A DNA stretch of 59,486 nt from Pyrinomonadaceae bacterium (GTDB lineage Bacteria > Acidobacteriota > Blastocatellia > Pyrinomonadales > Pyrinomonadaceae). The notes beneath the pieces are model-generated. The model saw only the letters and a list, made by a program, of their open reading frames with translations, was not told where the DNA came from and made no database searches. Position numbers and translations under genes: made by a program. The stretch covers positions 1-59,486 of the forward strand of contig DATELP010000107.1 of NCBI GenBank assembly GCA_035276425.1, given 5' to 3'. Below are positions 4,901-33,719 of this stretch, piece by piece; the stretch's first letter is position 1; each line of letters opens with the position of its first letter.

Positions 4901-5780
4901 GGCCAACTTCTTTGCCGCGAATCCGAATGCCGCCGGCATTACCGTTCTCGGCAACGATTCATTCTCCAACTACCACTCGCTGCAAGCCGAAATCCGGCGC
5001 AGGTTCTCGGGTGGTCTCCAGTTCCAGGCTGACTACACGTTCAGCAAGGCAATGACCGACGCTCCGGGCGCGCTGGGCAACAACCAGAGCGACTTGACCT
5101 CGTTCAGAACTCTGCGCGACAAGCACCTGGATTACATGCGTTCGTCGCAGGATCAGACTCACCGCTTCGTGTTCAACTCAATCTACGACCTTCCGATCGG
5201 AAGAGGTCGCAAGTACTTGAGCAATGCGAACGGTTTCGTCGATCGCGTTGTTGGTGGTTGGACCGCGAGCTCGATCGTGGTTTGGGCGACTCGTCCACCA
5301 TGGTTCATCGCTTCGAACCGTGCGACGGTCAACCAGTTCAACGCTGCCAACAATCCTGCCGATCTCGTCGGTATGAGTTTCGAAGAGTTCAAGAGCCATT
5401 TAGGTATCTTCCGTCATCCGACGGGTATCTATTTCATCGATCCGGCTCTCTTGAACATCACGACGACGGCGTCAGGTGCGTTCCAGCAGTCCACAGCTAA
5501 AGCAGGTCTCTTCGCAGCTCCTGCTCCGGGCTTCTTCGGTAATTTCCCGATGAACTCACTAAACGGACCGCGTTACTTCAATATCGACGCGAGCCTTGTG
5601 AAGCGCATCCCGATTACTGAAACAGTCAAGGGCGAACTGAAGACGACGTTCATCAATGTTCTGAACAACCCGAACTTCGTTTACAGTGGTCAGAACTTCG
5701 ATTCGACCAGCTTCGGCCGCATCACGACGACGAGTGGAAGCCCACGCGTTATCCACTTCACGCTGAAAGTCACCTGGTAA
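1941..5780 (+). CDS. TonB-dependent outer-membrane receptor with N-terminal carboxypeptidase-regulatory-like domain
   Basis: ATG at 1941 is preceded by GGAGGAG. There is a signal-like segment, then a GTLTGLVTDPQGAIVSGATITL...PGKYSL Ig-like domain, a plug-like region and a long beta-rich body ending in an aromatic residue (..KVTW). A terminator follows. Confidence 0.85.
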   Translation: MRRLYLSPRTLSATRAVAYRALMVTAVLALTCWLSLPVMGQSTTGTLTGLVTDPQGAIVSGATITLINSATRIELKSTSNDSGEFVFPQVPPGKYSLSVEATNFKKALATDLTVEVGTTSRTTVVLEVGSVTEQVTITATQDIVNSTTPTLTSVINTRQVQDLPLPTRNPLDLAGLQPGVAVIGDGTRGSSISGLRQTSVHLTQDGINAMDNFVKTSSLFALTAPSLNSTSEFSITTGTNDSGSGRGVGQVRLVTRGGTNDFHGDVFYLNRNDYFQANSFFNNLAGTPRARQNQHFFGFALGGPMFGPRFGEGGPAIWNGRDRAFWFFSYEGFRENFSATRNRTVLTEQARTGIFRYTGANGQLTSVNLLTIGNAGALNPITLAQLNAMPLPNNNLNGDTLNTAGFRYNVTGKDVNDKYVFRYDHVLVQDSAWGSHKLEFVFNRATFNLSPDTFNAIEAPFPGGIDVFQASTRSLATIALHSTFGSVTNELRYGRQWAPVNFLRAAPPDKPFFTTFAAVTNFDNVQMGQGRETIVTQWIDNMAIPKGAHTFRLGVDYQQVFADTFNDAGIHPNVTLGSNTQNSSGIINGDFPNLPAGATGNNIVTRAQNVFADITGFLASATATFNVTTPTSGFVPGATRSRIFKQRDLGLYVQDQWRAKPNLSLNFGVRWDYQGVPTIPNGLAIQVTNINDVFGVSGPNNLFNPNAAPGSQVTGQKATLDFVSGDTGKGLWNNDWNNFAPFFGFAYSPDFKEGFLAKVFGPTGTSSFRGGYSISYLHDGFTVVSNALGTGTTNPGLIQVSSNTTPQGVLSGGGVPLVTPSFVMPITDRQNFLANPNNALWAIEPNLRIPYVQQWSFGYEREITRNMAFEIRYAANHGVKVWRANNFNEVNIFENGFLKEFINAQKNLAARGGASFAPGCGGCVALPIFDKFFTQGGLPAGQTTAGQYSNATSISNLLNNNVGTLANTLAFSTTYRLNRENVALGIPANFFAANPNAAGITVLGNDSFSNYHSLQAEIRRRFSGGLQFQADYTFSKAMTDAPGALGNNQSDLTSFRTLRDKHLDYMRSSQDQTHRFVFNSIYDLPIGRGRKYLSNANGFVDRVVGGWTASSIVVWATRPPWFIASNRATVNQFNAANNPADLVGMSFEEFKSHLGIFRHPTGIYFIDPALLNITTTASGAFQQSTAKAGLFAAPAPGFFGNFPMNSLNGPRYFNIDASLVKRIPITETVKGELKTTFINVLNNPNFVYSGQNFDSTSFGRITTTSGSPRVIHFTLKVTW

Positions 5781-5810
5781 GCAACGTAAACTGACCCAAG
5801 GTGAAACCCC

Positions 5811-5846
5811 GGGGAGCGACTCGCAAGGGTCGCTCCTCTTTTTTGT
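5811..5846 (+). terminator. Rho-independent terminator after the receptor gene
   Basis: Stem GGAGCGAC / GTCGCTCC (5813-5820 / 5829-5836) followed by TCTTTTTTG. Confidence 0.75.
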
Positions 5847-5853
5847 AGTGCCT

Positions 5854-6087
5854 CAGTTTGAACTTAGGCTTATTACGCCGAGGCGTTTGCTAATTTCAGC
5901 CCATGGGTTCGAGCATTCGCGAGAACCCTGGGAAAACAGTTCAAAATCGCGACCAAACCCTGAAAGGGTTGGCCAGTTGGCGAACCCTTTCAGGGTTCAA
6001 TGACTATTTTTATGATCTCCCAAGGTTGTCGCTGCGCTCCAACCTTGGGCTAAAACTGGCGAACGCCTTCGGCGTGATTTCAAACTG
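5854..6087. repeat. 234-bp nested pseudo-palindrome (MITE-like element or structured RNA) containing six hairpins
   Basis: Termini are CAGTTTGAA ... TTCAAACTG. The hairpins are mirror-paired: 5875-5886 with 6063-6075 (ACGCC..GGCGT), 5900-5932 with 6019-6049 (CCCAxGGTT..AACCxTGGG), and 5956-5970 with 5983-5997 (AACCCTGAAAGGGTT / AACCCTTTCAGGGTT). Confidence 0.7.
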
Positions 6088-6179
6088 ATGCACCACGCTT
6101 TTTTTGTGCTTTTTGCTCGACTGACTAGTTATACTGCTCGCGAAAGATCTGTTTGAACCTCTACGCGCCCGCTTATCGA

Positions 6180-7268
6180 ATGTCCGCAGCACTTTCGCCA
6201 AATCAACTTCCTCTTGCGCCTCTCGGCGCAGGCGATTTGATTGACCGCGCTGTCAGGTTGTATCGCCGGCATCTGCTGGTGCTGATCCGGACCGCCGCGC
6301 CGCCGGTGATAATCGCGGCCGCGGGTTGGATTGTTTTTGCACTTGCCTTTCGACGTGTGTTTCTAACGTCCGATATGGGAGATCTGTTTGTTTACGTTTT
6401 GCTCAGCATCGTTTCTTTTTGCGTGATGATGGGCGGTTATTTGTTCACGCTGGTAGTAATGGGAGGAGCAACACGTACGTTAGTGGCCCACCTGCTGCGC
6501 AACGAACCGGTTACTGCTCGTGCAACTTACGCAGCCGTGCGCGCGCGTTTTTGGGGCCTGGTGGCTGCGTCGGTGCTCGTATTCTTTTGGGTCTTCATCT
6601 CGCTCAGCGCTGTTTGGGTGGTCTGGTACATACTGGTGTTGATGGTCACGTTGCTGGTCCTCGTGGCGAGCATGATTTCCACGTGGTTGGCAGTCATCGT
6701 CGGGATCATTGTGGGTTTGGCGTCAACCGCAGCAGGTCTTTGGATGTTCTTTTTCATTGTTGGCCGGGTGGCTTATGTGCCGCAGGTAATGCTGGTCGAG
6801 GGCAAGGGCGTCTTCGAGGCGTTTAGCCGCAGTTTTTCTTTAGCTCGCGGCAACGTGCGCCGGCTGATGGCCATGACTCTGTTTACAACCTTCGGAACTT
6901 ACTCCGCGCTGATGGTCCTTTTGCTTCCGCTTGGTTGGTACGGCTATCTCAACGGAATCGATCCATTCAACTCCGCGCAGTGGCCGGCGTGGTATTCGAT
7001 CGCTAACAGCGTGCTTGGTCCGTTGAGCTCAATTCTGCTGAGTCCGGTTTGGATGCTGGGGCTTTCATTGCTTTATGTCGATGAGCGCGTGCGCCACGAG
7101 GGTTACGACATCGAATTGATGGCCGCGCGTCAGCTTGGTGAATTGCCGGATGTAAACGTCTCGTCGCCTTTGGGCACCGCGCTCTCGTCGATCGCCGGCA
7201 AAAAACAACCACCGCCTGCGCCTCCGGGACCGAGATCATCTGGTACTATTCTGAATCTCACTCAATGA
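6180..7268 (+). CDS. Polytopic membrane protein, first gene of the MoxR/DUF58-type cluster (function unknown)
   Basis: Multiple long hydrophobic segments and a conserved-looking C-terminus (YVDERVRHEGYDIELMA). ATG at 6180 lies inside the TTG-initiated ORF at 6153. Its stop overlaps the next start (ATGA). Confidence 0.7.
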   Translation: MSAALSPNQLPLAPLGAGDLIDRAVRLYRRHLLVLIRTAAPPVIIAAAGWIVFALAFRRVFLTSDMGDLFVYVLLSIVSFCVMMGGYLFTLVVMGGATRTLVAHLLRNEPVTARATYAAVRARFWGLVAASVLVFFWVFISLSAVWVVWYILVLMVTLLVLVASMISTWLAVIVGIIVGLASTAAGLWMFFFIVGRVAYVPQVMLVEGKGVFEAFSRSFSLARGNVRRLMAMTLFTTFGTYSALMVLLLPLGWYGYLNGIDPFNSAQWPAWYSIANSVLGPLSSILLSPVWMLGLSLLYVDERVRHEGYDIELMAARQLGELPDVNVSSPLGTALSSIAGKKQPPPAPPGPRSSGTILNLTQ

Positions 7269-17953: not shown

Positions 17954-19306
17954 ATGCCGTCCCGCGTTGGTCTACAATTCTCCACGTTGCGCTTCGTCTT
18001 CACTAAATTCTTCTACTTCCTGGCGGCGCTCGCTTTTGTCCCGCTTTCACTCTCGTGGCAGCGCCCGTGGCTGGCGTGGGTCGCACTCGCTTACGACGTC
18101 CTGCTCATCATCGCGGCAATCGTCGACGCAAAGTTGAGCCATCTGCCGAAAGGTTTTCAGGTCACGCGGCACTTCGACGGCCGCTTCGCGATGGGCGCGG
18201 AAACCGAAGTAAAGATTCATCTTCACAACGCGTCAAACCGCGCGGTCTTGTTGATTGTCAAAGACGAGTATCCGCCGCAGATGATTCTCAAAGGTGAACG
18301 CGAGGGTGAAGTGAAAGTCGACGCGCACAGCACTGCGACGCTGATCTACGCCGTGACGCCGCCACGACGCGGCCGCTTTGAGTTTGGTTACGTAGCGTTA
18401 CGGTTTCGTTCGCGGCTTAATCTCGTTTGGTGCGACGCGCGTGTTGCCGAACCGATGGCGGTTAAAGTCTATCCAAACATGCGCCGCGCGCGTGAAGCGG
18501 AGTTGAAAGCACTCGGCGCGCGTTCGATGGTTGCGTCTCATCGGAAAACATCGTGGCGTGGCGAAGGACGCGAGTTTGAATCCATGCGCGACTACGTTCG
18601 CGGCGACGAACTGCGTCACATCTCCTGGACCGCCACCGCGCGACGCGGAAAACTCACGACGCGCCAGTATCAAATCGAACGCGATCAAACCATCCTTGTT
18701 GCACTCGATTCCGGCCGCTTGATGACCGCGCGTATCGAACAGGAAACCAAACTCGACTCCGCGGTACACGCGACGCTCGCGCTTTTTTCCGCCGCCGCGC
18801 GCGCCGGCGACAACGCAGGTCTGATCGTGTTTGGCCGGCGCATCAAGAGTTACTTGCCGCCGAGTCGCGGCCGCGATCACATTGATGCGGCGCTCGAATC
18901 GCTTTACGCGGTCGAACCGGAGATGATCGAGCCTTCGTACCCCCACGCGTTTGAGTTCATCGCCGCCAACAGCAAACGTAGATCGCTCGTGATTCTGCTT
19001 ACCGATCTGGTGGATGAAGAAGGTTCAAAAGAATTACTGACGTCGCTTCATCTGCTTCGTCCGCGTCATTTGCCGCTCGTGGTCACGATTGCGGATCGAG
19101 ATCTCAAGGCTGTAGTGCAGGGAGTTCCTGCGACAGTGCAGGATCTGTTTGCGCAATCAGTGTCCGAAGAGATCATTCACCATCGTGAGGCGGCGTTGAG
19201 AATGGTTGAATCGGTCGGCGGGCTCGCGCTCGACGTGACCGCAGCAGCGCTGGCGCCGGCATTGCTGGAAACGTATTTGAAGGTGAAGGAACGCGGCTTT
19301 CTCTGA
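17954..19306 (+). CDS. DUF58 domain protein (MoxR-associated, VWA-like)
   Basis: Two N-terminal TM segments, then FESMRDYVRGDELRHISWTATARRGKLTTRQY, the motif I associate with DUF58. The ATG at 17954 follows the terminator; the listed ORF starts at a GTG at 17891. Confidence 0.85.
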   Translation: MPSRVGLQFSTLRFVFTKFFYFLAALAFVPLSLSWQRPWLAWVALAYDVLLIIAAIVDAKLSHLPKGFQVTRHFDGRFAMGAETEVKIHLHNASNRAVLLIVKDEYPPQMILKGEREGEVKVDAHSTATLIYAVTPPRRGRFEFGYVALRFRSRLNLVWCDARVAEPMAVKVYPNMRRAREAELKALGARSMVASHRKTSWRGEGREFESMRDYVRGDELRHISWTATARRGKLTTRQYQIERDQTILVALDSGRLMTARIEQETKLDSAVHATLALFSAAARAGDNAGLIVFGRRIKSYLPPSRGRDHIDAALESLYAVEPEMIEPSYPHAFEFIAANSKRRSLVILLTDLVDEEGSKELLTSLHLLRPRHLPLVVTIADRDLKAVVQGVPATVQDLFAQSVSEEIIHHREAALRMVESVGGLALDVTAAALAPALLETYLKVKERGFL

Positions 19307-19319
19307 TTCCGGTTTTGAA

Positions 19320-19394
19320 CCCTCGTTTTGAGTTCAAGCTTTAGCTTGCATTGGTCAGCAAAGAACAACCTAAAGGTTGAACTCAGAACGAGGG
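19320..19394 (+). repeat. REP-like Y-shaped element, copy A
   Basis: ccctcGTTTTGAGTTCAAGCTTTAGCTTG-17 nt-CAACCTAAAGGTTGAACTCAGAACgaggg, lying between convergent 3' ends. Confidence 0.8.
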
Positions 19395-33562: not shown

Positions 33563-33719
33563 GTGTACCCCTGTTCAAACTTTGTTTAAACTCGTTCCCT
33601 ATTTACGTCAGAACCCTCAAGCTTGGGGCTCGAGGGTTCATGACGCCACGGGAGGAACGAGACTCGTTCTTATGCTTTATTTAGACGGCGAATTATAACT
33701 CAATTCCGAAAAGCTGGTT

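Follow-up and report, generated by a model that had tools for sequence, protein, structure and literature searches.

The window, meaning the whole stretch of 59,486 nt analysed here from a Pyrinomonadaceae genome, carries a large near-palindrome with nested local hairpins between the terminator of an outer-membrane receptor gene and the start of a MoxR cluster, and the locus raises the question of what kind of structure this is and how it came to lie there. A sequence reading of positions 5500–6400 together with a repeat finder establishes that the palindrome is real. The first-pass annotation offered three explanations for it, a MITE, a composite of REP units or a structured noncoding RNA; the first two are upheld by the evidence below, and the third is not. 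Very probably, the structure is a 252-bp two-layer non-autonomous element, in which a RAYT-associated core is enclosed by IS1-like ends, and which was inserted into the T-run of the terminator by DDE-type transposition.

Limits, fold and insertion site of the element

The true unit extends from 5845 to 6096. The palindrome had previously been delimited as a 234-bp span at 5854–6087, and its limits have to be moved outwards by 9 nt on each side, giving 252 bp. Likewise, the previously assigned termini, CAGTTTGAA and TTCAAACTG, do form an inverted repeat, but they make up only the inner half of the ends, which form a terminal inverted repeat of 18 nt. The left terminal repeat, of the IS1-like type (5845–5862, plus strand), is common to the copies C226 and C130 of the same genome and to many copies in the relatives G010 and G006, and the right one (6079–6096, minus strand) is present in six copies of the own genome and in a contig-end fragment (C166:38017). 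This outer repeat starts with GTAGTG and ends with TTTGAA, and its two copies are complementary at 16 of 18 positions in the window and at 18 of 18 in C226. A 12-nt spacer (5863–5874, plus strand), defined by the alignment of copies, separates the left terminal repeat from a REPIN-like core (5875–6075, no strand assigned), which is made up of two ~100-nt arms in inverted orientation, with the hairpins H1–H3 in the left arm and H4–H6 in the right.

All six local hairpins described before are confirmed, and each is given here on the plus strand with the share of cells that are paired in an alignment of 52 distinct copies from the own genome (G000) and its relatives. H1 (5875–5886) is a terminal 5-bp hairpin that has lost one loop base in the window copy (100%). 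H2 (5900–5932) has a stem of 9–10 bp and a variable loop (97.2%, with two covarying pairs), and H3 (5956–5970) is a 6-bp hairpin, into whose loop an IS110-family element has inserted in relatives (99.0%). The right arm mirrors this order: H4 (5983–5997) is the mirror of H3 (97.4%), H5 (6019–6049) is the mirror of H2 with a perfect, 100% complementary 10-bp stem (96.3%), and H6 (6063–6075) is the mirror of H1 (99.2%). Over the six local stems together, 97.9% of cells are paired and six pairs show double-sided changes, with covariation at the middle pair of H3 (C-G/G-C, 29:19), in H4 (33:14) and at one pair of H5 (A-T/G-C, 25:18). Pairing of the same positions between the two arms reaches 95.3%, with two covarying pairs. 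Both foldings are thus largely preserved, and the alignment leans only slightly, and not decisively, towards local hairpins over a single long hairpin. Folded as RNA, 5845–6096 forms one long hairpin with free energies of −132.8 kcal/mol (z = −12.2) for the plus strand and −144.6 kcal/mol (z = −14.9) for the minus strand, and none of 200 shuffled sequences folds as stably.

No gene explains the region, as had been stated before. A 61-aa ORF (5903–6088, plus strand) and a 63-aa ORF (6010–6201, minus strand) exist within it, inside a repeat with non-triplet indels among close copies; these copies differ by indels of 1–5 nt, and the 252 bp have no conserved coding capacity.

Upstream of the element lies a gene for a 1315-aa outer-membrane receptor with OMP_b-brl_4 and CarboxypepD_reg domains. 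Its intrinsic terminator (5811–5844, plus strand) comprises a stem-loop of 12 pairs at 5811–5838, followed by a T-run. The element does sit between this terminator and the start of the MoxR cluster, in agreement with the position first reported, and the T-run itself is the insertion target. For the search of empty sites, positions 5000–7000 of the window were compared with 80 congeners, among which the unpublished genomes G047, G050 and G053 are counted in the tally only and support no claim. Orthologous regions without the element occur in G058, with flanks that are 90% and 88% identical, and in G004, with flanks that are 80% and 75% identical; in both, the flanks are directly joined, and nothing interrupts the terminator hairpin or its T-run, both of which are intact. 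Between the terminator stem and GTGC, these empty sites contain 9 nt (T, C and seven T). At the filled site, by comparison, 8 nt of T-run stand to the left of the element (5837–5844) and 9 nt to its right (6097–6105), which amounts to a net duplication of 8–9 bp. This base-by-base comparison indicates that 252 bp entered the T-run of the terminator and duplicated 8–9 bp, and the T-run duplication speaks against deletions as the origin of the G058 and G004 sites. The target duplication of the window copy is imperfect, matching at 7 of 8 positions, and lies in a homopolymer run. The duplications at other copies with outer repeats match at 9 of 9 positions in C130, at 8 of 9 in C226, and at 9 of 9, 10 of 10 and 9 of 9 in three copies of G010. 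The window element is a real insertion with the exact limits 5845–6096 and a duplication of its target.

The insertion keeps the terminator hairpin and six T's upstream of the element, and it lengthens the distance from the receptor stop codon (5780) to the next ORF (6153 or 6180) from ~120–150 nt to 372–400 nt. The gap between the element and the next gene, previously put at about 90 nt, is 57 nt to a TTG at 6153 and 84 nt to an ATG at 6180. A scan for sigma-70-like promoters, ill suited to Acidobacteria, detected none in either part of this interval. The reading of the MoxR genes and of the receptor is unchanged by the element. At E ≤ 0.001, Pfam gives no match for the first ORF after it (6153–7268, 371 aa), which stands at the head of the DUF4129/DUF4350/MoxR AAA_3 cluster.

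The core family and its Y1/HUH transposase

The genome that contains the window, G000, is a fragmented MAG of 4.08 Mb in 290 contigs and is 79% complete. Further copies, whose presence the first-pass annotation had left to a genome-wide search, are abundant in it: the 252-nt BLAST query yields 93 matches, and five further near-full copies are 87–92% identical to the window copy. When ten copies are aligned with their flanks, the ~201-nt core (5875–6075) is found in all of them, and the outer layer is limited to a young subfamily. C107 (the window copy), C226 and C130 carry the outer repeat at both ends, C20, C217 and C56 carry the right one only, and two more outer-repeat ends lie at contig breaks (C33 and C166). 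A profile built from the ten copies detects 36 core loci in G000, mostly intergenic and in many unrelated contexts; 28 loci are full length, and the 8 partial ones include half-elements of ~95 nt. The IS1-type ends are confined to six young copies of this genome, and about 22 of the 28 full-length copies are without them. Several copies that have no outer repeats carry extra tandem units of the terminal hairpin outside the core, in a BIME-like arrangement.

Of 24 congeners searched by BLAST, 17 have the core, and the 16 genomes that represent six other families of the class have none. A public locus with both an outer repeat and a core (L114) is labelled Pyrinomonadaceae. Two arrays were observed in relatives: in G010, an array of the terminal hairpin unit with a period of 40 nt lies beside a core copy (L042:1501–1660; C5:624205...), and in G007 at least five whole cores are arrayed with a period of ~240 nt (C3:40551–41697).

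The core is tied to a Y1 transposase gene. A search of G000 for Y1/HUH transposases (PF01797) returns five loci, the best of which, C111:18577–19032 (76 bits), lies between a full core copy (18190–18394) and a right-arm copy (19036–19171). In the protein sequence, the HUH motif (HTH) and the context of the catalytic-type Tyr (GGYGAF) are visible, and its score of 47 bits on NCBIfam transpos_IS200, against a cut-off of 55, would fit a divergent RAYT-like enzyme. Orthologues occur in 7 of 24 congeners, one per genome, at 77–89% identity. With the core profile, each of the eight orthologue loci has core arms flanking the gene to the left and right (8 of 8), a count that is not one of independent cases, as the loci possibly share ancestry. 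The usual order is H1-H2-H3, ~45 nt with a ribosome-binding site, the gene, its stop codon and then H4-H5-H6. Among the paralogous Y1 genes (≤54% identity), 0 of 22 loci have a core match at E < 1e-4. Since the arms flank the Y1 gene in orthologous loci, the ~200-nt repeat corresponds to that unit minus the gene. The interior of the window element agrees with the REP-composite option: it is an inverted dimer of a ~100-nt three-hairpin unit, and that unit elsewhere flanks a RAYT-like gene. The core is a genus-restricted repeat of the REPIN/TIRtron type from soil Acidobacteria of the Pyrinomonadaceae, and its cognate enzyme is the single-copy Y1/HUH RAYT-like transposase. The Y1 orthologue was not found in the repeat-rich genomes G004 (99% complete) and G020. 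Two microsatellites, with units of 6 nt (CATCGT) and 7 nt (GTTCGCA), separate the promoter region of the Y1 gene in G000 from the repeat copy upstream of it (C111:18425–18510).

On the contig of the window, the family profile finds no second copy. The recurrence formerly placed at 33616–33644 is a hairpin with no more than a 7-nt stem word in common and is rejected as a family member; in the window, the exact pattern is seen a single time. Kinship with the 75-nt REP-like family (19320–19394) is not supported either; the two families are distinct. Use of the C111 transposase by that REP-like family was considered as well and rejected, as 0 of its 121 matches lie on the C111 contig.

Six copies without outer repeats (C87, C118, C99, C15, C177 and C229) have no counterpart at the corresponding positions in G058, G057 or G004, so the family as a whole is insertion-polymorphic. 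The comparison of C15 with G004 provides one clean junction, with an insert of 245 nt and no duplication. At C87, the junction shows an imperfect direct repeat matching at 9 of 11 positions, and the remaining junctions are mostly too diverged to read. These sites are compatible with, and are not proof of, a different and duplication-free route for the copies without outer repeats. A TA-dinucleotide duplication of the Tc1/IS630 style was also considered for the core and rejected; it is inconsistent across copies and finds no support in the empty sites. At the position of the G000 C15 copy, G058 has a different hairpin repeat of 55 nt with GCCAC/GTGGC ends (L265, C14:13853–13907), which indicates that one intergenic spot has been hit by different repeat families.

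The outer ends and IS1-like elements

The 18-nt outer repeat also bounds elements with other interiors. In G007, the 18-mer, with two variable positions, encloses a 120-bp MITE that has an unrelated palindromic interior and duplications of 8–11 bp (L043:1501–1620, L052, L056, L040 and L060). An exact-pattern scan with one genome per species finds the 18-mer at a minimum of 120 loci in many phyla. A related ORF of 280–320 aa is present at 27 of these 120 loci, and at 15 or more loci it is bracketed by two inverted 18-mers that are 1.1–4.6 kb apart and accompanied by duplications of 9–10 bp. The top match of these ORFs is DDE_Tnp_IS1 (PF03400; E = 1.6e-5 to 1e-3; 19.8–25.7 bits against a cut-off of 24.1). 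On NCBIfam transpos_IS1 (NF033558), they score 55–62 bits, below the 100-bit cut-off, and the models of IS6 and IS1595 score lower than those of IS1. Because the transposases score below the NCBIfam cut-off, their assignment to the IS1 family is a best match only. The element ends read GG-nnn-TG when they are preceded by G, and such ends together with duplications of 8–9 (8–10) bp are what we take to be the IS1 signature, following ISfinder/TnCentral.

Several of the full-length elements (L112, L148, L097 and L106) contain passenger genes, for a SocA/Panacea antitoxin, an IrrE-like peptidase with an HTH and a P63C-domain protein. Furthermore, on a Pyrinomonadaceae chromosome (OY970256.1; L101), one such end lies beside a truncated transposase of the IS1-like type. 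As sequences, the outer repeats of the window element and of these IS1-like elements are identical. Terminal inverted repeats, a target duplication, empty sites in relatives and many copies together bear out the MITE option for the window element.

A search for the partner of these ends detects no intact IS with such outer repeats in G000 (79% complete, 290 contigs), G010, G007, G006, G058 and G045. In G000, a pattern search for the outer repeats with up to three mismatches returns only MITE ends and chance matches, and among five congeners only distant homologues appear, one each in G010 and G045, in unrelated DNA. The only IS1-like gene detected in G000 by tblastn (C208:22203–23156; L201) encodes ~318 aa with 37–44% identity to the reference transposases and an N-terminal CxxC...CxxC motif. 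No such outer repeat lies near it within five mismatches, nor does any notable inverted repeat flank it, and the gene may be domesticated or decayed.

From these two layers, a sequence of events can be proposed. A core copy would have come between two IS1-type ends, for example by inserting into a small MITE like that of G007. An IS1-like transposase supplied in trans may then have moved the window copy via its outer repeats, and the Y1/RAYT-like enzyme would spread and maintain the copies that have no outer repeats. At the receptor/MoxR locus, the element is presumably without host function. A simple two-ended DDE transposition does not explain the three young copies (C20, C217 and C56) that have the right outer repeat only. 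A bolder proposal, which we put forward tentatively and with less than even confidence, is that a REPIN-type repeat has been freed from its sole dependence on a domesticated, RAYT-like Y1 transposase by acquiring IS1-like ends, so that two mechanistically unrelated transposases can move one 250-bp unit, and that this double-keyed subfamily has recently been amplified across several species of the genus (G000, G010, G006, G045 and others).

Alternative origins, known systems and insertions into the core

An ordinary REPIN, moved by the RAYT-like Y1 enzyme alone, would make the outer repeats mere parts of the arms of a subfamily and the direct repeats a product of chance or target preference. 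Such an origin would accommodate the clear link between the core and the Y1 gene, the fact that the majority of full-length copies (~22 of 28) have no outer repeats and yet are polymorphic between species, and the three young copies with one outer repeat each. It is nevertheless improbable, as perfect duplications of 9–10 bp stand at no fewer than four copies with outer repeats and the limits of the window element coincide exactly with the repeat ends; moreover, the same 18-mer ends elements with DDE transposases in unrelated phyla, as well as a MITE with a different interior. Transposition of the IS200/IS605 and RAYT types is not known to produce a target duplication.

A still smaller probability attaches to a structured cis-regulatory element or small RNA that the host keeps for a function of its own, for instance to stabilise transcripts, to terminate them or to control the MoxR operon. 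Such a function would be in keeping with the very stable fold, with local hairpins that are 98% paired over 52 copies and include six covarying pairs, and with the position between a terminator and an operon start. Passages of PMC3733652 also describe bacterial MITEs and REPs as able to affect neighbouring transcripts. Conservation and covariation of the hairpins, however, are to be expected just as much under recognition by a single-strand transposase, and conservation alone is no sign of a role as RNA. G058 and G004, the closest relatives, lack the element at this intergenic site, where the same genes are adjacent, and copies lie in many unrelated intergenic contexts. An Rfam 15 scan of 5300–6700 at E ≤ 10 gives no family match, its best hit reaching 18.7 bits against a gathering score of 40 (E = 1.3), and the noncoding-RNA option of the first-pass annotation has no support in these results. 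Finally, a one-off palindrome or an assembly artefact, conceivable in a MAG fragmented into 290 contigs, is refuted by 36 loci in G000 and dozens in independent assemblies of congeners, including the near-closed G010 (9 contigs) and G007 (6 contigs).

The two-layer element, a RAYT-associated core within IS1-like ends, has counterparts among known systems for each of its layers. With REPIN-RAYT systems (PMC3116915 and PMC2817692), it shares the pairing of hairpin units in an inverted doublet, which folds into a long hairpin, a copy number in the tens per genome together with half-copies ("singlets") and clusters, a lineage-restricted distribution, and one cognate Y1/HUH transposase gene per genome that is flanked by the same repeat. 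The unit here, however, is ~100 nt long with three hairpins, whereas a REP is a single unit of 20–40 nt, and the subfamily of the window has DDE-type terminal repeats and target duplications, which are absent from REPINs. A GTAG or CGTC tag beside H1–H6 is not present in the alignment of 52 copies. With a three-hairpin unit of ~100 nt and no tag, the looser description of TIRtrons fits better than that of REPIN-RAYT.

TIRtrons/TIRYTs (Di Nocera et al. 2013, PMC3733652) likewise have a RAYT-like gene flanked by long inverted repeats of a dispersed family, often in dimers or clusters, and the same paper singles out an Acidobacteria group of such transposases, with examples of the Terriglobia type. 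They differ in that no further layer of IS-type ends is described for them, and they are likened to the present family by their description. DDE-derived bacterial MITEs (Correia/NEMIS, RUP, ERIC and MITEAba12) resemble the window element in being short, non-coding and intergenic with a strong hairpin, and in having terminal inverted repeats of ~18 nt that match a transposase-encoding IS and a fixed target duplication of ~9 bp; the interior here, in contrast, is a complete RAYT-associated repeat and not the deletion remnant of an IS. To the IS1 family, the associated transposases are linked by their best matches, and the C208 homologue by its N-terminal CxxC...CxxC motif. They depart from that family in scoring under the curated cut-off, in having the transposase in a single ORF of 280–320 aa and in the passenger genes of many elements.

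A literature search for REP-inside-MITE chimeras found nothing specific. Both component systems are known, and the new part is a large three-hairpin REPIN in Pyrinomonadaceae together with its DDE-type ends; there is no new RNA or gene. REPIN-RAYT systems have been studied mostly in Proteobacteria, and the present family adds a very large REPIN from Acidobacteria, with three hairpins per arm and the transposase gene located exactly at the dyad. One subfamily has ends of the DDE type along with target duplications, which raises the prospect that a single non-autonomous element may be acted on by two transposition systems. For annotation, a mystery palindrome and two spurious small ORFs are removed, and a repeat class that breaks Pyrinomonadaceae MAG assemblies is explained.

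The core itself also serves as a landing site. A 1.9-kb unit of G010 (L067, 1077–2997; G010:C5:725576–727496) was considered as the autonomous parent of the MITE and rejected, its insert being an IS110-family element that entered an already existing copy at the loop of H3. This element, of ~1.7 kb, encodes a 509-aa transposase (NF033542, E = 2e-79), and all four copies of it that were found, three in G010 and one in G045 (L067, L252, L253 and L255), lie inside a core copy, which each of them splits at the loop of H3 or at that of the mirror hairpin H4. No such location was seen for a paralogue that is 49% identical. With 4 of 4 copies in core hairpin loops, the repeat appears to be a specific target of that recombinase, and the repeat and the IS110-family (bridge-RNA-type) element in relatives form a natural pair of target and recombinase for study. 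Elsewhere in G010 (C5, L045:1218–1538), a core copy is interrupted by an unrelated palindromic element of ~180 nt, which indicates that these genomes carry several MITE-like families nesting in one another.
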